Below, piece after piece: positions 1,216 through 48,344 of a stretch of 50,538 nt of DNA (position 1 is the first letter of the stretch; each line of letters starts with the position of its first letter). Source of the DNA: Rickettsiales bacterium (GTDB lineage Bacteria; Pseudomonadota; Alphaproteobacteria; Rickettsiales; UBA1997); contig JAIRXW010000027.1 in the NCBI GenBank assembly GCA_031268035.1, forward strand, positions 1 through 50,538, in the 5' to 3' direction. Below the pieces are notes generated by a model, which was given only the letters and a program-made list of their open reading frames with translations, had not been told where the DNA came from and ran no database searches. Made by a program: the position numbers and the translations under genes.

Positions 1216-3657
1216 ATGAATCCGGACTTGAAAATTACTAACAGCCAATCTAACAGCGTCGATCCAAAGTTTGGAACCAAAAATTTTACGGTCGCCATCA
1301 TCTGTGGCGGTCCATCTCTAGAAAGGGGGATTTCTCTAAACTCCGCTAGATCTGTGCTAGATCATTTGGAAAACAAAAATGTGACAGTAAAAATATTGTA
1401 TGTTAACCCAAATTTGAATTTCTTTATCTTGGATAAAAAGCAGTTGTATTCGAATACTCCCTCGGATTTCGACTTTAAACTACTAGATTCTAGCGCCAAT
1501 CATCTTTCCGAAAAAAATTTTATAGCTGAATTAAAAAAAACAAACATAGTTTTTCCTCTCATCCATGGAAGCTATGGGGAGGACGGAGGTATCCAACAAC
1601 TTCTCGAAGATAATGCCCTGGCCTTTATCGGCAGCGGCAGTGCATCCTGCAGGTCTGGTTTTGATAAAATAGAGGCCTCAACAATTTTAAGTAAAAATGG
1701 TTTTTATGTTTTCCCCTCCGTACATTTTAAAGAAAATAGGGAGGAAAATGTAAAAATTATAGAGAGATTTTTTAAATTAAATAATCTCAGAAAGGCCGTG
1801 GTTAAACCGGCCTACGGAGGTTCTTCCATTGGAGTGCACTGCGTATATTCTCCCGATGAGGCCCTATCCAGAGTAAACGCACTATTTAGCCAGAACAATG
1901 CTCCAGTCATACTGGAACCCTTCTGCATAGGACAGGAATTTACCACAATTATTCTTAGAAACGCCAACGGAGGATGCCCAGTGGCGCTGCCGCCCACTGG
2001 AATAGAGATGAAATATGAGAATTATCAAATATTTGACTACAGAAGAAAATATTTGCCCACATCCCGAACAAGATTTCACACTCCGGCCAAATTTAGCGAA
2101 GAGGCGATAAAAAATATAATGAGATACTCCGAAGAAATATTCGAATTATTGAAACTAGAAGATATCGCGAGAATCGATGGCTGGCTATTGAATGATGGGA
2201 GGATTTGGTTTTCTGATATTAACATTGTCGCTGGAATGGAACAAAACAGTTTTGTTTTCCAACAGTCCACAAGAATTGGGATGACCCACAGAGATCTCGT
2301 CGGCTATGTGCTAGCATCGGCCTGCAGCAGATACGGTTTAGCATATCCTAGATATATCTCCGGGGGTAAAACCAGAAAGAAAGTCAATGTTTTATTTGGC
2401 GGTTCCAACGCAGAGAGGCAGATTTCTCTGATGAGCGGCACAAACGTCTGGCTGAAACTATTAAAATCTGAGAAATACTCTCCAAAGCCTTATTTTTTAG
2501 ATAAAAATGGCGATGTTTGGTATTTGCCCTATTCCTATGCCCTTAGCCACACGGTAGAGGAAATATACGATAATCTCCTGGAAACAGAGGAGATAGACAA
2601 AAAAACGAATCAAAGGCTAGTCGATGAGATATGTTCCAGACTAGATATTTCCCCGGGACAGAGCATAGAAACTCCAATCAGATATTCATTCGACAGGTTT
2701 GTAGCGCTGACAAAGAAGGAGAAGGCCTTCGTCTTTCTGGGGCTGCATGGAGGGATCGGCGAGGATGGAACCCTGCAGAGAAAGTTTGATGAAAATGGAC
2801 TGAAGTACAATGGCTCGGGGGAACAGGCCTCAGGTCTATGTATGGATAAATATGCCTCCGCCAAAGTCATCGAAAATCTTAGAGACGATGTTCTGACTGC
2901 TCTACCAAAAATAAAATTTAATCTCGATGATTTTAAAAATTTTTCCCGAGAGGACTATGCAAATTTTTTAGAGAAAATGGAAAAGAAACTCGGCTCCAAT
3001 AGTTTTATTCTGAAGCCCCGCAGCGATGGCAGCTCAGCTGGCATAGTGGAAATTTGCAACGCCAATGATCTTATAAATTACATAGATCTGCTGAAAAACG
3101 GTATTTTGTTCATACCCCCTCGTACCTTTAAAGGACAAATGGGCATAGTGGAAATGCCAAACAACAGTGCCCAGGATTTTTTACTGGAAAACTTTATAGA
3201 GGCGGATAAATTGATAATTAGAAACAATGACATAGTGCGGCAGGAAATCGACGGCTGGATTGAATTAACCGTTGGTATCCTAGAACACGGCGGGATCTAT
3301 CATTCACTGAGTCCGAGCATAACGGTGGCCGAAAGTAAAATTCTAACTCTAGAGGAAAAATTCCAGGGAGGAACTGGTGTTAACATCACGCCTCCCCCGA
3401 CGGAAATAATTAGTGCCGAGTTTTTGAAAATAATTAAACTAAACATTGAAAAAGCCGCGCGGGCACTAGCCATAGAAAATTACGCTAGACTTGATGTGTT
3501 TGTTAATCAGAAAAAAAATAAAATACTCTTCATCGAAGCAAATACCCTGCCGGCTCTGACCCCCTCTACGGTCATATTCCACCAGGCCCTCAGAGAGAGG
3601 GAGCCTCTGGTCCCAGAGAAATTTCTAGAGAAGCTCATTGAAATGAAAAATTTCTAA
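1216..3657 (+). CDS. ddl: Tandem double D-alanine--D-alanine ligase (two complete Ddl/ATP-grasp modules in one 813-aa ORF)
   Basis: Module 1 (aa ~24-375) has VAIICGGPSLERGISLNSA, PLIHGSYGEDGGIQQLLE and WFSDINIVAGMEQNS. Module 2 (aa ~388-813) has VNVLFGGSNAERQISLMSG, LGLHGGIGEDGTLQ and LFIEANTLPALTPST. Confidence 0.85.
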   Translation: MNPDLKITNSQSNSVDPKFGTKNFTVAIICGGPSLERGISLNSARSVLDHLENKNVTVKILYVNPNLNFFILDKKQLYSNTPSDFDFKLLDSSANHLSEKNFIAELKKTNIVFPLIHGSYGEDGGIQQLLEDNALAFIGSGSASCRSGFDKIEASTILSKNGFYVFPSVHFKENREENVKIIERFFKLNNLRKAVVKPAYGGSSIGVHCVYSPDEALSRVNALFSQNNAPVILEPFCIGQEFTTIILRNANGGCPVALPPTGIEMKYENYQIFDYRRKYLPTSRTRFHTPAKFSEEAIKNIMRYSEEIFELLKLEDIARIDGWLLNDGRIWFSDINIVAGMEQNSFVFQQSTRIGMTHRDLVGYVLASACSRYGLAYPRYISGGKTRKKVNVLFGGSNAERQISLMSGTNVWLKLLKSEKYSPKPYFLDKNGDVWYLPYSYALSHTVEEIYDNLLETEEIDKKTNQRLVDEICSRLDISPGQSIETPIRYSFDRFVALTKKEKAFVFLGLHGGIGEDGTLQRKFDENGLKYNGSGEQASGLCMDKYASAKVIENLRDDVLTALPKIKFNLDDFKNFSREDYANFLEKMEKKLGSNSFILKPRSDGSSAGIVEICNANDLINYIDLLKNGILFIPPRTFKGQMGIVEMPNNSAQDFLLENFIEADKLIIRNNDIVRQEIDGWIELTVGILEHGGIYHSLSPSITVAESKILTLEEKFQGGTGVNITPPPTEIISAEFLKIIKLNIEKAARALAIENYARLDVFVNQKKNKILFIEANTLPALTPSTVIFHQALREREPLVPEKFLEKLIEMKNF

Positions 3658-18710: not shown

Positions 18711-19017
18711 GGTTCTATCTATTTTTCCAGAGTTATAGTGCTAGAGAGAAATTCCACCACTAGAGAGGGAACACACAGCGCTCAGCTAAAGAATATGAGT
18801 GCTGGTGTGCTAGTTCAGCCGATATTTACTAGAATATTATCTACCCGCAGGATTTAATTTTGAAGCTTAGCATCGGGTGGCAGCTATGGAACGGCGATTA
18901 GATATAGGCAGTCCCGTCATGGACCTTTTGCACTCCCTTGACTTATTTTAAATTGAGTCTAACATATATCAGAAGTTGTTTCTATTTTATTATCAAACGT
19001 TATTTTTGGAGAGGTCT

Positions 19018-19539
19018 ATGTTTAGAAAATTGATTATTTTAGGAAGCCTACTGCTAGTTGTGTCGGGTGCCAGAGCTGCTACGATAAATATTGATGACTA
19101 TATGGAACCGTTTATCCTCGATGAGTTCGGAAAGAGAGTGGGAATGGAAGAGGAAGAGGAAGAGGAAGAGGAAGAGGAAGAGGAAGAGGAAGAGGAAGAG
19201 GAAGAGGTTTGTAAAAAGACCTATGAAAATTCGGGAGTCTATACAAAAATCATACCGGTTCATCTTATCCCAGAAGAAGAGGAAGAGAAAGAGAAAGAGG
19301 TTTATAAAAAGACCGATGAAAATTCGGGAGTCTATACAAAAGCGTTTATCCTCGATAAGGCCGGAAATAGAGTGGGAATGGAAAAGGAAGAGGTTTATGA
19401 GGGGGTCGATAAAAATTCGGGAGTCTATACAGAAATCATACCGATTCATCTTACCCCAGAAGAAGTTGCCGAGATGGTTGAAAGTTTTAGAAAAATCATA
19501 GAGAGTGGTATTTTTGCAGAACTTGCGGTAACAAAGTAA
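19018..19539 (+). CDS. Secreted acidic repeat protein with a poly-Glu tract
   Basis: ATG at 19018 is preceded by GGAGAGG. Signal peptide MFRKLIILGSLLLVVSGARA. 20 consecutive Glu. Three copies of an (E/K)NSGVYT(K/E)(I/A) module and two copies of FILD(E/K)xG(K/N)RVGME. Confidence 0.7.
   Translation: MFRKLIILGSLLLVVSGARAATINIDDYMEPFILDEFGKRVGMEEEEEEEEEEEEEEEEEEEEVCKKTYENSGVYTKIIPVHLIPEEEEEKEKEVYKKTDENSGVYTKAFILDKAGNRVGMEKEEVYEGVDKNSGVYTEIIPIHLTPEEVAEMVESFRKIIESGIFAELAVTK
19147..19206. repeat. Perfect hexanucleotide microsatellite (GAAGAG)x10 inside the CDS
   Basis: Read directly: ten uninterrupted GAAGAG units, in frame, encoding 20 Glu. Confidence 0.97.
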
Positions 19540-31822: not shown

Positions 31823-32623
31823 ATGGAATTTACAAACAATTTAAAACTTCCACTGCTAGTTCCGAACCAGTCTGGTAAAGAATTCACCCACAACGAGGCT
31901 CTTGTGATACTGGACAACCTTCTCCACAGCGGTGTTAAAAACACACTTAATGGACCACCGCCGGAGCCAATGACAGGTGACAGATACCTGGTCGGTCCAG
32001 AAGCGACCGGAGATTTCCTGGGAAAAGAAAATTCCATAGCTTTCTACGACAATGGCTGGAGATTTATTATTCCACCCCCGGGGCAACTCATTTGGAATCT
32101 GGCTCTGAGTAAACTCTATGTGTTCAATGGGGCCTGGAGTGAAGCCGTTGTTAATTCTAGCAGCGGAGAGGAAACCGCATTTGATCTAAATTTTACCTTC
32201 GACGAGCCCCAGAACGGCGATACCCTCATCTACAGCGGCGGTAAATTTGTCAATGATGCTGCACTGCAAACTTTTGCCACTAAAGACCTAGCTAATGTGA
32301 CTGGCGCCGCAAAGAATCTTATGGGAAAAATGTCTCTGCCATCGAATCAATATATAAATTTAACTGCCGAAAGCAGTGGCAGTAGTTACACGGCCCCGGC
32401 CGATGGCTATCTAAACATCACCGTCCGGGCAACTTCGGACAATGCCCAGGGTAGACTGCAGAATACAAGTAGTCTAATGGTCAACCAGTGGTTCATTGCA
32501 AAAATAAACTATTACGCCTCAGCGTTTATGCCCTGCTCCGCCGGAGACCTGGTGCAGTATTTTTATCAATCCCAAAGTGTTACAAAATTTACCTACCACT
32601 ATCTCATTGGAAACAATAATTAA
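31823..32623 (+). CDS. Phage tail-fibre-like protein with a DUF2793-type N-terminal domain
   Basis: NLKLPLLVPNQSGKEFTHNEALVILDNLL...PPPEPMTGDRYLVGPEATGDFLGKENSIAFYDNGWRFIIPPPGQLIW...LYVFNGAWSE matches the L-x-L-P...Q-x-x-K-x-x-T-H-N-E-A-L-x-x-L-D...G-x-x-Y-x-V...G-x-W-x-F pattern of that family as I recall it. Confidence 0.65.
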   Translation: MEFTNNLKLPLLVPNQSGKEFTHNEALVILDNLLHSGVKNTLNGPPPEPMTGDRYLVGPEATGDFLGKENSIAFYDNGWRFIIPPPGQLIWNLALSKLYVFNGAWSEAVVNSSSGEETAFDLNFTFDEPQNGDTLIYSGGKFVNDAALQTFATKDLANVTGAAKNLMGKMSLPSNQYINLTAESSGSSYTAPADGYLNITVRATSDNAQGRLQNTSSLMVNQWFIAKINYYASAFMPCSAGDLVQYFYQSQSVTKFTYHYLIGNNN

Positions 32624-32636
32624 AAGGATGTGAAAC

Positions 32637-33014
32637 ATGTTTATAGAATTAGACGACGAAAATAACATAGTGGCTGCTGCCACCTTTGCATTTGGTGACA
32701 ACAGTGTAGAAACTAGCAACGAAGTGGCCAGAGACGCCGATGGAAAATTATATTTTTCAGGAAGCAGGCCTCCGGTCGACAAAATTGCTGAACTAAAAAA
32801 AGAAATAATTTTCAGAAAACGAGCTGCATTGGACAGTATATTCTACAGCAACTATCCACTGCATAAACAATGTAATATTGGGATCTACGGCACAGAGGAG
32901 GAAAGAACTCTGTTCATGGAATTTCACAATGCGAAAGTTTCTGCGTTTGATTCCTTTGTGGATACGGTAGAAAACTGCACCACGGAAGAGGAACTTCAGG
33001 TATACCAGAATTAA
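32637..33014 (+). CDS. Small acidic protein, possible tail-fibre assembly/chaperone partner
   Basis: 125 aa, starting 13 nt after the tail-fibre-like gene. The function is inferred from position and size only. Confidence 0.35.
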   Translation: MFIELDDENNIVAAATFAFGDNSVETSNEVARDADGKLYFSGSRPPVDKIAELKKEIIFRKRAALDSIFYSNYPLHKQCNIGIYGTEEERTLFMEFHNAKVSAFDSFVDTVENCTTEEELQVYQN

Positions 33015-40878: not shown

Positions 40879-41981
40879 TGCCAGAAAAATATATTTCTGA
40901 AGTTGTTCTAAATAATTTTAGGAACTATTCCCAGAGGGCATTCTCCTTCTGTGGTGGTTTTAATGCCATAGTTGGTCCCAACGGACGGGGAAAAACTAGT
41001 CTGCTGGAGGCCATATCCCTAGTGACTGACGCCCGAGGACTGAGGGGCGCCCAGGTCTCCGATATGATTTCCCAGAACGGCGTAAAGTCAGATCTACCGG
41101 ACGACACGCTATTTTCCATTTTTATAAAGTTCAATGATGGCGACAAAATTGTTCTTCTGCAGAAACAGGATAAAAAATTGATAAAATTCAACGAGGAGCA
41201 ACTTAGAAGTAGTGGTATACTGATAAAAATACTTAAAATAACCTATTTTGTACCCCAAATGGAGGATTTTTTCCTGGGCGCTCGCTCCAATCGAATAAAA
41301 TTTTTAGATAGAACGGCAACTCTGCTCTTCCTGGGCCATGGAGATGATTTGAGAAAATATGAATTTTTTCTAAGAGAAAGAATGAAAATTCTACTGACCC
41401 AGGCCAGTCAAAGTAAATGGCTAGATATAGTCGAAAAAAAGATTGCAGAACTTGGTGCGGCCATAGCCGATGTGAGAAATAGAGTTTTGGAACATCTCAA
41501 CCAAATATTTTCGGAGCACACAACGGAATTTCCAACGGGACACCTGCATATATCTGGCGAAGTTGAAAATCTCTTCGACACCAGAAGGGCTACGGAGATA
41601 GAGGCCGCCTATAGAAAAATTCTATTTTCAAATAGAACCCTGGACGCGGAAACAAAAAAAACAAATTTTGGAGTTCACCGAAGTAATCTCAGTGTCTTTA
41701 ACAGTTCCAATGGTCTCAGGGCGGAATTGTGTTCAAGCGGGGAACAAAAAATGCTTCTACTGTCCCTGATAATTGTCAAAGCCATATTTTCAAAACAAAT
41801 TAACGAAGGAACGCCAATTTTACTGCTGGACGACATGTGTTCACAGATTGACACCGGGACAAAGAATAAATTGTTTTTAGAATTAAAAAAATTGAATATT
41901 CAGATATTTATAACAGACACTACGGAAGAATCTTTTAGAACACTGGAAAATTTCAGTGACAGTAAAATAATAGAACTATGA
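40878..41981 (+). CDS. recF: DNA replication and repair protein RecF
   Basis: LNNFRNY, Walker A GPNGRGKTSLLEAI, signature SSGEQKMLLLSL and Walker B ILLLDD. Confidence 0.9.
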   Translation: MPEKYISEVVLNNFRNYSQRAFSFCGGFNAIVGPNGRGKTSLLEAISLVTDARGLRGAQVSDMISQNGVKSDLPDDTLFSIFIKFNDGDKIVLLQKQDKKLIKFNEEQLRSSGILIKILKITYFVPQMEDFFLGARSNRIKFLDRTATLLFLGHGDDLRKYEFFLRERMKILLTQASQSKWLDIVEKKIAELGAAIADVRNRVLEHLNQIFSEHTTEFPTGHLHISGEVENLFDTRRATEIEAAYRKILFSNRTLDAETKKTNFGVHRSNLSVFNSSNGLRAELCSSGEQKMLLLSLIIVKAIFSKQINEGTPILLLDDMCSQIDTGTKNKLFLELKKLNIQIFITDTTEESFRTLENFSDSKIIEL

Positions 41982-42664
41982 CAGAACAAATGAGTTTTAA
42001 TTTTCCCCAGGAGGAAAACTACAGTGCAAATAACTTTATCGTATTCAGTGGTAATCTAGAGGCTTTCTGCCTTCTGAATCAGGCCAGGGATGATTCGGAG
42101 GCTCTGGGCAACCAGATAATTTTTCTCCATGGTGAAGAAAAAAGTGGGAAAACCCATCTGGGACAAATATGGAGGCACAATCACGGCGCAATAAATATGG
42201 ATCTGCAGGAACTGGTGAAACTGGATTTTGAAGAATTTGTTCCAAAAATCGGATCTATCATCGAAAAGCTGGAATACTATCTCTTTGATAATTTCCCCTC
42301 GGATATCGAAGAGGACAAATTCTTCTATCTTATCAACACAGTGATAACCAATGGCTCCTCGGCTCTCTTTATAACCCGCGACAGCATTCCCAAAAAACAC
42401 AGAACGATGAAAGATTTAGAATCCCGCATCAGAGGAGGCATAGATATCAGGATAGGGAAGCTCAGCAGCGACGCCAAACCCATGCTGATAAATAAGCTTT
42501 TTGCCGACAGACAGATATTCCTGGGTGGTGATCTGCTGAAATATCTAAACACAAAACTCGGTACAAATTACCGCGAAATATACGACCATATCAATAGAAT
42601 AGTTCTAGAGGTGTCCAATGGCGGCCAGAGGCTAACGATCAGTTTTCTGAAAACGATTCTGTGA
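41978..42664 (+). CDS. hda: DnaA-related AAA+ protein, Hda/HdaA-like regulatory inactivator of DnaA
   Basis: Q-M-S-F-N-F clamp-binding-like N-terminus, NNFIVFSGN and a degenerate Walker A HGEEKSGKTHL. ~228 aa. It overlaps the recF stop by 4 nt. Confidence 0.65.
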   Translation: MTEQMSFNFPQEENYSANNFIVFSGNLEAFCLLNQARDDSEALGNQIIFLHGEEKSGKTHLGQIWRHNHGAINMDLQELVKLDFEEFVPKIGSIIEKLEYYLFDNFPSDIEEDKFFYLINTVITNGSSALFITRDSIPKKHRTMKDLESRIRGGIDIRIGKLSSDAKPMLINKLFADRQIFLGGDLLKYLNTKLGTNYREIYDHINRIVLEVSNGGQRLTISFLKTIL

Positions 42665-42689: not shown

Positions 42690-45600
42690 TTAATTTCCCC
42701 ATCTAACGATAACCGTTGCCACACCTGAATTTGCATCGTTTGATCCTCCGCAACTGGTTATATTACAGTAGCCAGAACCGCCGCCACCACCGCCATAGGA
42801 TACACATCTTTCGCCCGATAGGGTCGCAACCCCACCAGTATGGAGGAGGGCCGAACTGCCCGCAGCACCGCCCCGGTAGCCGCCTCCTCCGCCACCGCCG
42901 CACCAGACAGATTGGTTAGGAGCGCCCTTGGCATTTCCTCCGTTCATCCCACTGCCGTTAGCGCCACAGCTATTAGTGCTGGTACCCGCAGAACTAGTAT
43001 TAACATCACAGTTTGCACAAGCATTACTGGCATTAGCAGTAGTACCACCCCCACAGGAAAAGTAACAATTATCATTGGTGGCCCCTGACCCTCCTCTGCC
43101 ACTACCACCACCTCCATATCCTCCATTATGATTGTAAGAATTACCGCCTCCGCCTCCGCCAGCCACCACCAATGTTGTACTGCCACTGTAGACTGCCGCG
43201 TAGTTACCTCCGGCGCCCCCCCTTGCTGTGACATAGCCGGGCGCCGTGCATAGACCGCCGGCTCCTCCGCCGGCTATGGTTACAGTCAGAGTTTTGGCCG
43301 AAGAAGAGGTGTAGCTGTACGTCCCCGTTGTGTAGCCACCATACCCGCCTCTGCCACTTGTTACGCCATCTGTCTGGCTCCCCGTGCCGCCGGCGGATCC
43401 CCAGGCCTGTATGGTTATTTTTTTCACACAGGCGGGTATGGTGATGTCGCCGGAGGATGTTCTGGTCACATAACCGTTCTCGCAGCACTGGCTATCGGTG
43501 TTGCTTAGACTCCACGCTCCCTTTGAACATGTCAAGCTCGCTTTTCCGCTGCTAGCATAGCTCGTATAGCCACTGGCACAGGAAAATTCAACGGTGGCCC
43601 CGCCGCTAGTGGCTCCGGTGGTTGCCACGGCTTTGAAGCTGGTCACAGCGCTGTTTTGACATGGAATTTCACGACAGCTGACTTCGTTGGTGCTCCAGGT
43701 GCCCTGGCTGCAGGTTTTGGTCACCGTCGAACCTGTGGGTTCATAGCCACTGCTGCAGGTGAGGGTGGCCACGGAACCATGTTTCTGTGTGTTTGTGTAT
43801 GTCCAGGTGCCATTGGCAACGGCAGTCACAGCGGCGCAGTTTTTATAGCAGGTGGCCGTTGTGTCGTAGGTCCAGGCGCCGCCGCTGCAGGTGCCCCTTC
43901 GGCTGGTGTCTGGTAAAAGACTGTAGCCGCTGCTGCAGGCGAGGGTGGCCACGGAACCATGATTCTGTGCGTTTGTGTACGTCCAGGTGCCATTGGCAAC
44001 GGCAACGGCAACGGTACAGTTTTTGTAGCATGTTCCCACCCGTTTCCAGGCGCTATTCTTGCAATAATAGTAATAGTTCCAGCTTTTGCCGCCACAGGCG
44101 CTGGCCTCACAGTCTCCTCCGGCGGCAGATTCTAGATAGCCTGTCTGACATTCTGCATTAAGAAACGAGCTATCTACAGTAAACAGTGAATTTCCCATCG
44201 CTGTGGTGGGGGTCACCACTAGACCGGAATTATAAAAATACCCGCTGTTTTCTATGGTGGTGCCACTGGAAATAGTGAACTTACCTCCTGTCACAAGTGC
44301 GGGCAATCCGCTGCAGCCCTGGTTGCAGGTGCTTGGCTCGCTGTCCCAGTTGCCTTCGACACATTTGCGAACACCGGAGGAACCAGTAATTCCATAGCCG
44401 CTGCTGCAGGTGAGAGTGGCCACAGAACCATGTTTTTGCGTATTTGTGTAGCTCCAGCTTCCCTTAGCCGGATTCGAAATGACCGCACAGTTTTTATGGC
44501 AGACTCCAATCTGTTTCCAACTGCTGCCATTGCAGTAGTAGTAGGGCCAATGTTCACTGTCACAGTTTCTAATGCCACAGTTGCTCTCGTCGTTGAATTT
44601 TGAGTAGCCCTCGTCACAGACAAAATTCAAAATTGATCTATTTGCCGAGAACAGATTCTGGGGATTGTCTGGGAAGGGCTGTGAGTCTGAACCCTGGGTA
44701 TCATAGAAATTTCCAACGTGCTCTATGATAGTATCCTGGTTAATCAAATTAAAACTGGCTCCAACTAGAAGTTTTGGTAGACCAACGCACCCGGGGATAC
44801 AGCTGACAGAGCTTACACTCCAGGTGCCATTTTCGCATTGGCGTACATTTGGACTGCCACTGAATCCATGACCACTGTCACAGGACAGCACTGCCTTTGC
44901 ACCGTGATTTTTGCCCTCGGGATAGCTCCAGAGGCCATTTGGCATACTCTCGATGTCGGAGCAATTTTTGTAGCAGGCGCCCTCGCTGTATCTCCATTGG
45001 CCAAGGTGACAGTACTGAGTTACATTGCCGCTGTAACCGCTAGAACAATTGAATGTCTTGGTTCCACCAGAACCTGTGATCCCACTTAAATTTGAAGTGT
45101 CTATATTGTAGCTGATTGAATCACTGTCTCTGGTGAGTAGTTCATTATTTTGGCAAGGGTTGGCATTACAGAAACCGCTTTTTACAGACCATTTTTTATC
45201 TTGCCCACAAATATATTCCACTTGTCCCTCCATACCCCCGGATAGAGTGTAGCCAGCGGCACATTGCCTGCGCACAGTCATGGATATTCCATAATTCTTA
45301 GGAATTATTTCCATCTCACTTTCCTCAAAGACGCAATTATTGTCTCTAATTATTTTTCTAAGATCACCACTGGTGCAATTATCCAAAGGAGTAGCAATTC
45401 GTTCAAAATTACTGCCACCATTTTTACACAGGGAATAGGTTTCGGGGCCAATTTCAAGGCAGGGATTTATCTGTTCCCTTTCTTCGGGATCATACCAATC
45501 TCCCCAGCATATTCTGGCAAAACCGTTGCCGTCGTTATATTCTTCAGAATCGAGAGTGTTGATTTCTGTTATTGCATCCTCCAATTTGTCCGAAGACACA

Positions 45601-48344: not shown

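Follow-up and report, generated by a model that had tools for sequence, protein, structure and literature searches.

The stretch analysed here, 50,538 nucleotides of contig JAIRXW010000027.1 from a Rickettsiales bacterium (referred to as the window), carries on its minus strand, at 42690..48344, a gene that appears to encode a pilin of the VirB2/TrbC family fused to a large cysteine-rich ectodomain. The gene is one uninterrupted open reading frame of 1,884 codons and a stop, with zero ambiguous bases, which agrees with the single 5.65-kb frame reported in an earlier note on this DNA. A Pfam scan of the whole protein detects ALK_LTK_GRD at 101 bits, Sushi at 90 bits in six stretches, TrbC/VirB2 at 25.0 bits and Gly_rich_2 at 20 bits, and a cysteine map of the chain counts 97 Cys residues. 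An NCBIfam scan of the protein gave no match, and an exact-sequence look-up returned no identical record. The domain architecture proposed in the earlier note was recovered by Pfam, by hidden Markov models (HMMs) made from the protein's own modules and by fold matches, with two small corrections that concern the number of Sushi modules and the family of the second glycine-rich domain (GRD). The features, with amino acid (aa) ranges and the basis of each assignment, are the following.

42690..48344, minus strand: the whole gene, a putative modular VirB2 pilin with an ectodomain of complement control protein (CCP) modules and GRDs; a single reading frame, collinear with the orthologues P0002 (1,189 aa), the L006 protein (1,772 aa) and P0011 (1,949 aa)
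48270..48344, minus strand: Sec signal peptide, aa 1-25 (MGRISLRFLLHLVVSLALLLPFSSA, followed by YC); read from the sequence, with equivalent N-termini in orthologues
47973..48224, minus strand: VirB2/TrbC-type pilin domain, aa 41-124; Pfam TrbC, hhalign, AlphaFold2 (AF2) with Foldseek, identity to orthologues
46275..47972, minus strand: six CCP/Sushi-like Cys modules, aa 125-690; cysteine map, AF2 with Foldseek (aa 28-420), Pfam Sushi
45501..46262, minus strand: glycine-rich domain 1 (GRD1), aa 695-948, PF12810 ALK_LTK_GRD; 107.8 bits, E 1e-30, on isolated aa 690-960
45156..45500, minus strand: linker together with a single weak Sushi-like module, aa 949-1063; 18 bits with Pfam Sushi, under the cut-off, and a weak match of the protein's own HMM at 1027-1060
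44796..45155, minus strand: two canonical Sushi modules, aa 1064-1183; Pfam, own HMM 63 and 88 bits
44487..44798, minus strand: module X copy 1, a family-specific Cys module, aa 1183-1286; no Pfam match, paralogous to copy 2, recurs in P0011, P0012, P0014 and P0017
44319..44495, minus strand: Sushi module, aa 1284-1342; own HMM 88 bits, one copy of a 110-nt DNA repeat at 74% identity
44016..44324, minus strand: module X copy 2, aa 1341-1443; alignment to copy 1, recurrence in homologues
43479..44024, minus strand: three Sushi modules in tandem, aa 1441-1622, of which the first two are recent duplicates; own HMM, 110-nt DNA repeats 87% identical, G+C at third codon positions (GC3) 0.64
42693..43472, minus strand: glycine-rich domain 2 (GRD2), aa 1625-1884, PF21722 Gly_rich_2, reaching the C-terminus; Pfam on isolated aa 1620-1884
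48371..48958, minus strand: upstream Flavodoxin_2/FMN reductase gene, a syntenic marker outside the pilin-fusion protein; Pfam

The signal peptide described earlier is evident on direct reading of the sequence. Its n-region contains R3 and R7, its hydrophobic core runs from L8 to F22, and the small residues S23 and A25 occupy positions -3 and -1 (SSA before the cleavage site, YC after it). A lipoprotein reading of the motif SAYC was rejected, there being no lipobox and no equivalent Cys in the orthologues. The pilin domain is modelled as three helices (residues 55-68, 70-88 and 94-118) with a GGVKW loop and the conserved residues Cys61 and Cys124. The AF2 model of aa 28-161 has a mean confidence (pLDDT) of 80 and a helix-loop-helix fold. 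When this model was compared with the PDB by Foldseek, ranks 1 and 2 were taken by the T-pilus VirB2 of A. tumefaciens (8exh and 8cue; probability 0.98 and 0.93, TM-score 0.67 and 0.66, root-mean-square deviation 2.7 Å), and the ranks after these had a probability of only 0.02. The E-values of the two VirB2 matches are weak, at 0.2-0.5, as is to be expected because the hairpin has only 64 residues. Searches of PDB sequences with the N-terminus and with a three-sequence profile found no pilin and only chance matches, so that profile-profile and fold comparison were needed to establish the link.

The window protein matches Pfam TrbC (PF04956) over aa 41-115 with 25.0 bits when the whole protein is scanned and 27.8 bits when the N-terminal 140 aa are isolated (cut-off 27.9). 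The orthologue from a mouse-gut assembly (L006, 1,772 aa) scores 34.9 bits, above the cut-off, and the domain is detected at E<=1e-3 in 26 of 29 long family members (best 2.4e-9). A profile of the N-terminal domain, made from 3 sequences and searched exhaustively against 1.84 billion representative proteins, matched 111 proteins. About 25 of these are long (371-1,949 aa), some others have 4-8 tandem copies of the domain, and many are stand-alone proteins of 100-150 aa, which hmmsearch with this domain reaches at 1e-5 to 1e-13. Every one of the 42 small or tandem proteins from this search that were scanned is Pfam TrbC (best 8.5e-96); two of the small relatives are labelled VirB2 by IMG, and one partial orthologue bears the NCBI label 'TrbC/VirB2 family protein'. 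This was further supported by hhalign, which aligned 21 fused domains with 26 stand-alone pilins at a probability of 99.35% (E 6e-21, 83 columns).

No part of the protein is better conserved than the pilin domain, which aligns without gaps to five orthologues at 76, 60, 51, 54 and 67% identity; among orthologues the CCP-like region is 33-44% identical, GRD1 39-54%, and the ectodomain ranges from 20 to 54%. Four glycines and two cysteines (C61, C124) are near-invariant and are common to the fused and the stand-alone proteins. Stand-alone pilins with short tails end 0-6 residues past the Cys equivalent to C124. As the second Cys is situated near the C-terminus of the stand-alone proteins, the fusion begins exactly where a pilin normally ends, and the window protein, which is not a small mature protein ending near helix 3, continues for about 1,760 aa beyond Cys124. 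The conservation pattern and the position of the fusion point argue against a generic transmembrane anchor. Judged by profile comparison and modelled fold, the N-terminus is a true VirB2/TrbC-family homologue. The pilin-like hairpin of the earlier note, borderline in Pfam for this protein, is substantiated by the profile-profile alignment and the T-pilus fold matches. The possibility considered there, that the hairpin is a generic anchor without a VirB2 profile match, has given way to homology with stand-alone VirB2.

The next 570 aa or so had been described as divergent Cys-rich modules. They resolve by cysteine spacing into six modules, bounded by C-x3-C pairs at 235/239, 320/324, 401/405, 481/485 and 565/569. 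The AF2 model of aa 28-420, which covers roughly the first three modules, has a pLDDT of 78 overall and of 85-93 across the Cys modules. Foldseek matched this model to beta2-GPI, factor H, DAF/CD55 and CD46 (E 1e-4 to 1e-3, probability about 1.0), and essentially all of the top 50 matches are CCP-containing proteins. Pfam Sushi (PF00084) sums to 29 bits over aa 120-700, and the HMM made from the protein's own modules finds weak Sushi-like cores across aa 189-553. The divergent modules in the modelled stretch (aa 28-420) are therefore CCP-like by predicted fold.

The distal part of the ectodomain contains six strong Sushi modules (1065-1126, 1126-1183, 1284-1342, 1441-1501, 1501-1559 and 1563-1622), each scoring 58-88 bits with the own HMM. 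Canonical Sushi modules had been predicted there correctly, and their number, given before as at least five, is corrected to six by both the Pfam stretches and the own HMM. The second Cys module of about 100 aa does occur twice, as claimed (1183-1286 and 1341-1443). The two copies of this module X align with a score of 182 and have the pattern GC.G.P ... C..GY ... C..C ... YYYC..G.WK..G.C; a Pfam scan of isolated aa 1183-1286 gave no match. Self-BLAST for internal repeats produced nothing useful, and the own HMMs and DNA repeats were used instead. Direct repeats of 110 nt lie within 43479-44504 of the window, with 87% and 74% identity, and indicate that Sushi modules were recently duplicated within the gene. 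Outside the family, the best full-length matches are Sushi-rich proteins of eukaryotic type, for example SVEP1, and identity to eukaryotic Sushi proteins is 21-23%. The GC content of the 3' half of the gene is raised, mostly at codon position 2, that is, by its Gly/Ala/Ser/Thr content, and in the last three Sushi modules GC3 reaches 0.64, the background in neighbouring genes being about 0.41. Recent horizontal transfer as the source of this rise was largely rejected, because the rise is mainly at codon position 2.

The glycine-rich domain of about 250 aa predicted at aa 695-948 is a clear PF12810 domain, placed at about aa 704-945. The prediction of two ALK/LTK-type domains holds for GRD1 only: GRD2 gave no significant score against PF12810 and, as an isolated segment, matches PF21722 with 26.7 bits (cut-off 24.3), which places it at about aa 1632-1878. 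GRD2 nevertheless aligns locally with GRD1. The relatives detected for GRD1 number 109, all with PF12810, mostly 270-450 aa long and metagenomic; those with names come from Bacilli metagenome-assembled genomes (MAGs) or belong to Histomonas (P0198) and Trichomonas (P0206), which are parabasalids. Several of them (e.g. P0149, P0167, P0195) combine PF07963 with PF12810 and begin in the manner of classic type IV prepilins, P0149 with KKGFTLIEVLAV. Their start, of the form G|FTLIE, makes them resemble modular pilins of the type IV pilus kind that carry a GRD. None of the nearest relatives of GRD1 is an ALK or LTK, and Pfam finds no kinase or other ALK module in the window protein, which places it outside the ALK/LTK receptors. 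Sequence comparison indicates that the PF12810 domain is a common bacterial module which became joined to filament subunits on more than one occasion, and 'ALK/LTK-type' is mainly a Pfam name, not a sign of animal origin.

The architecture is common to about 25 sequence clusters, whose sources are all uncultured gut MAGs assigned to Rickettsiales or to alphaproteobacteria. The closest homologue, P0002 (1,189 aa, 42% identity), comes from the Rickettsiales MAG Roe453_bin92 and has the same TrbC, Sushi and GRD content. A scan of 185,579 species-representative genomes with a six-sequence alignment as query returned six loci, five of them under the title Rickettsiales bacterium and the sixth under 'uncultured Alphaproteobacteria bacterium'. 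Their sources are three termite-gut MAGs (judged from names and accession series), one mouse-gut MAG, one from water-deer colon and one further bin. The long orthologues are all collinear to about aa 1,190, beyond which the numbers of distal Sushi, X and GRD modules vary. The architecture is that of a conserved family of uncultured gut-associated Rickettsiales-like alphaproteobacteria, and the homologues that the earlier note proposed to look for in related bacteria do exist, in termite, mouse and ruminant MAGs. In public databases they stand as 'hypothetical protein' or 'TrbC/VirB2 family protein, partial'. Some members of the wider family have other arrangements. Seven proteins of 400-800 aa (P0027, P0029, P0046, P0052, P0073, P0085, P0093) consist of 4-8 tandem TrbC/VirB2 domains, a 'poly-pilin' architecture that is itself unusual. 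In the distant P0031 the pilin domain is internal (aa about 496-601) and is preceded by an N-terminal region of about 500 aa. At L012 10001-15847, on a 206-kb contig, the P0011 orthologue is split into adjacent frames of 1,283 and 642 aa, for which a frameshift, pseudogenisation or a sequencing error is possible.

In the window, the Flavodoxin_2 gene lies on the same strand as the pilin-fusion gene, 26 nt from its start codon, and it also precedes P0002 and the partial P0005 (loci L001 and L002). On the other side an hda-like gene (41978..42664) is convergent with the pilin-fusion gene; dnaB, dnaN, recF and hda run upstream on the plus strand. The remaining genes of the window are mostly housekeeping genes, as judged by reading and a partial Pfam scan, and the neighbours of family members elsewhere are always housekeeping genes as well. 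The sole gene of a type IV secretion system (T4SS) that was seen near any member of the family encodes TrbI/VirB10 (561 aa, truncated where the locus ends) and lies at L013 23912-24216, about 10 kb from P0031. Stand-alone VirB2 relatives (L009, L011, L018, L019) are likewise isolated among housekeeping genes, outside T4SS operons, two of them directly downstream of prfA (RF-1). Genes for eukaryote-type Ser/Thr protein kinases, of which L001 has three consecutively, occur near family members, as does one for a DOT1-like methyltransferase (L001 1-4229, L015 6579-7943, L008 14048-14638), which suggests host-manipulating lifestyles.

Several other genes of the window are unusual in themselves. On the plus strand, 18976-19539 encodes a protein of 187 aa that has a long run of Glu residues and in which 'ENSGVYTK' motifs recur, and the 752-aa frame that follows it at 19546-21804 has, like it, no Pfam match; the two proteins could be effectors. 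An 813-aa protein at 1216-3657 (plus strand) is a tandem fusion of two complete D-Ala-D-Ala ligase units. A DUF2793 protein at 31823-32623 (plus strand), which we take to be phage or gene transfer agent tail-fibre-like, is followed at 32637-33014 (plus strand) by a small frame without a Pfam match, both amid housekeeping genes.

The order of the domains implies a topology in which both ends of the VirB2 hairpin are periplasmic and the Cys-rich ectodomain is on the oxidising side. VirB2 resides in the inner membrane; VirB4/VirB11 extract it, and it joins the pilus at its base on a VirB6 platform, according to PMC9259494 and PMC12857230. The same papers state that the first component to enter becomes the pilus tip, with growth taking place beneath the tip complex. 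In the solved pili the helix-helix loop faces the lumen, and the termini are adjacent and can be covalently joined (PMC11722321). Against this background it is quite possible, and we propose it tentatively, that the window protein is a modular VirB2 pilin displayed by a T4SS as a minor, probably tip, adhesin subunit. The hairpin would be inserted by Sec into the inner membrane with both ends periplasmic, and the Cys-rich ectodomain would oxidise and fold there. A C61-C124 disulfide might staple the two ends of the pilin together as a covalent analogue of pilin cyclisation, and the vir/rvh-type T4SS of the lineage would extract the pilin domain like that of any VirB2. Because pili grow at their base, and subunits that all had a 1,760-aa arm could not be packed, the fusion would be a minor subunit forming the first, or tip, layer. 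The adjacent termini and the lumen-facing loop suggest that the C-terminal arm points outward from the pilus. With about 17 CCP-type modules and two GRDs, the arm is estimated to be about 70 nm long if extended, and would project from the tip as beads on a string to bind a host cell surface, that of a gut protist or of the epithelium.

The only component missing from the T4SSs of Rickettsia (rvh) is VirB5, and the genes of these systems are dispersed over islets, an 'archipelago' (PMC2653234). With such scattering, housekeeping neighbours are to be expected, and the scattered stand-alone relatives fit this arrangement. The fusion might functionally replace the VirB5 tip adhesin that Rickettsia-type systems do not have. 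The complete picture, in which the T4SS pilus of gut Rickettsiales-like bacteria is capped or nucleated by a VirB2 with a CCP/glycine-rich adhesin arm of about 70 nm that replaces VirB5 and couples secretion to host-cell recognition, is more doubtful than the tip-subunit proposal itself. A function as a pilin is favoured by the pilin-specific conservation, by the fusion at the pilin C-terminus and by the lack of another export signal: Pfam finds no autotransporter, T9SS or sortase domain in the window protein. The fusion of PF12810 to type IV pilin N-termini in other bacteria provides a precedent for the module.

There is little doubt that the gene is real and not an artefact. That separate genes were joined by a chimeric assembly or by an overlooked frameshift is hardly conceivable: the same collinear architecture is present in independent termite, mouse, ruminant and other assemblies, and the Flavodoxin_2 synteny was observed three times. 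The split of one orthologue into two frames on one contig, and the climb of GC and GC3 toward the 3' end, would suit such an artefact, but the GC increase follows mostly from the Gly/Ala/Ser/Thr content at codon position 2. The frameshift or assembly error that the earlier note had allowed for is not indicated. The same note regarded the ectodomain as eukaryote-like, and one could suppose that Sushi and ALK-type modules originated in an animal host and imitate complement regulators or the ligand-binding domains of ALK/LTK in order to manipulate host signalling. The Sushi-rich, eukaryote-type proteins among the top non-family matches, the fold similarity to human complement regulators and the eukaryote-like kinases and DOT1-like gene near orthologues would agree with such an origin. 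The low identity to eukaryotic Sushi proteins is at variance with it, as are the assignment of GRD2 to PF21722 and the relatives of GRD1, the great majority of which are small proteins of bacteria, type IV pilin fusions among them, with some from parabasalids and no ALK or LTK. Furthermore, the family occurs in termite-gut bacteria, for which vertebrate complement and ALK ligands are irrelevant. Mimicry of this kind is very improbable, and the eukaryote-mimicking character ascribed to the protein is not supported.

The alternatives that accept the pilin homology are closer to the proposal, and a number of observations weigh against assembly of the fusion into a pilus. The Pfam TrbC score of the window protein is just below the cut-off. 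Some family members (GGASW, GSANW) have lost the Lys of the loop, which faces the lumen. T4SS genes were seen neither adjoining the orthologues nor, by reading and a partial Pfam scan, in the 50-kb window. A folded, disulfide-bonded ectodomain would have to pass through the outer-membrane core complex and, to our knowledge, no VirB2 with a large extension has been demonstrated to assemble into a pilus. If the hairpin had been co-opted purely as an inner-membrane anchor, with the ectodomain remaining in the periplasm or envelope, or being shed, independently of any T4SS, then the lack of adjoining T4SS genes throughout the family and the unconserved loop Lys would follow naturally; the available passages of PMC12857230 mention no experimental precedent for the assembly of an extended VirB2. 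A mere anchor, however, should retain only its hydrophobicity, whereas the hairpin is the most conserved, gap-free part of the protein (51-76%) and keeps the Gly and Cys positions specific to stand-alone pilins. An extended arm of the estimated length would also far exceed the width of the periplasm, and Sushi and GRD are typical extracellular binding modules. A purely anchoring role is accordingly judged somewhat unlikely. Cleavage near the conserved ISxNxYSC junction would lead to a different outcome: the pilin would go into a normal pilus or piston, and the ectodomain, once freed, would be expelled by way of the T4SS outer-membrane complex, much as in the pertussis-toxin/Ptl model. VirB2/TrbC pilins are commonly processed at the C-terminus (PMC2653234), TrhA loses its last five residues (PMC11722321), and in the Ptl model (PMC12857230) cargo in the periplasm docks onto a piston that resembles a pilus. 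Conservation of the junction motif is strong, but the motif is kept equally, Cys included, in stand-alone pilins that end there, which makes it a pilin feature and not a cleavage site specific to the fusion; synthesis of a 1,760-aa cargo with each pilin, 1:1, would moreover be very costly. Such a pro-protein is improbable.

The minor tip subunit with an adhesin arm would change how T4SS pili are viewed. VirB2 pilins are regarded as small, minimal subunits, and how T4SSs without VirB5, including those of Rickettsiales pathogens, contact their targets specifically is an open question. If the proposal is correct, T4SS pili can be modular, as type IV and chaperone-usher pili already are. The fusion is a concrete candidate for the host-recognition element of uncultured gut symbionts and a natural test of how far pilus assembly tolerates additions at the pilin C-terminus, and the 'ALK/LTK glycine-rich domain' would be recast as a module that is widespread in bacteria and has repeatedly been joined to filament subunits. 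The principle of joining a pilin to an adhesin is familiar from FimH-type adhesins. It is also already known from the modular type IV pilins (PMC8179133). The present combination was not found described in literature searches (VirB2 with Sushi, pilin with GRD, bacterial PF12810, Sushi in symbionts, C-terminal extensions of VirB2), in agreement with the novelty claimed earlier. The passages on VirB2 and VirB5 in a 2025 review of T4SS diversity discuss extended VirB6 and systems without VirB5, and extended VirB2 is absent from them.

Among known systems, the extended VirB6 proteins of Rickettsiales (Anaplasma VirB6-4, >4,000 aa; PMC7648143, PMC12857230) are similar in being a core membrane component of a T4SS with a huge hydrophilic C-terminal extension to which no function is assigned. 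VirB6 is a different subunit, however, and its extensions are not CCP/GRD arrays. The tip adhesins VirB5, TraC and CagL resemble the proposed role, as minor components located at the tip that bind the host or recipient and enter the pilus first. They have no sequence or fold relationship to the window protein, in which Pfam and NCBIfam find no VirB5/TraC-type match and in which attachment would be through a true VirB2 domain. In the chaperone-usher adhesins FimH and PapG, a pilin and a receptor-binding domain are combined in one polypeptide that is incorporated first, at the tip; their fold and assembly pathway are unrelated to those of the window protein.

The stand-alone pilins of P-type T4SSs (A. 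tumefaciens VirB2, R388 TrwL, Rickettsia RvhB2; PF04956) have the signal peptide, the helix-loop-helix hairpin and the conserved glycines in common with the window protein, together with the profile homology and the 8exh/8cue fold. The location of its gene outside T4SS clusters also corresponds to the scattered arrangement in Rickettsiales. Mature stand-alone pilins have about 70-120 aa, and are ended, trimmed or cyclised where the window protein runs on for about 1,760 residues; instead of being cyclised, members of its subfamily have a conserved pair of cysteines. The modular type IV pilins (PilB and PilC of Streptococcus sanguinis; PMC8179133, PMC9934059) belong to an unrelated filament, with a signal peptide of class III and just one N-terminal helix as opposed to a Sec signal and a VirB2 hairpin, and their ectodomains are far smaller. 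The window protein, in which Pfam finds no PF07963, is not one of them. The design is nevertheless the same, a polymerisation module followed by a C-terminal adhesive module, and in P0149, P0167 and P0195 the module grafted onto the type IV pilin is of the same glycine-rich domain family as that of the window protein.

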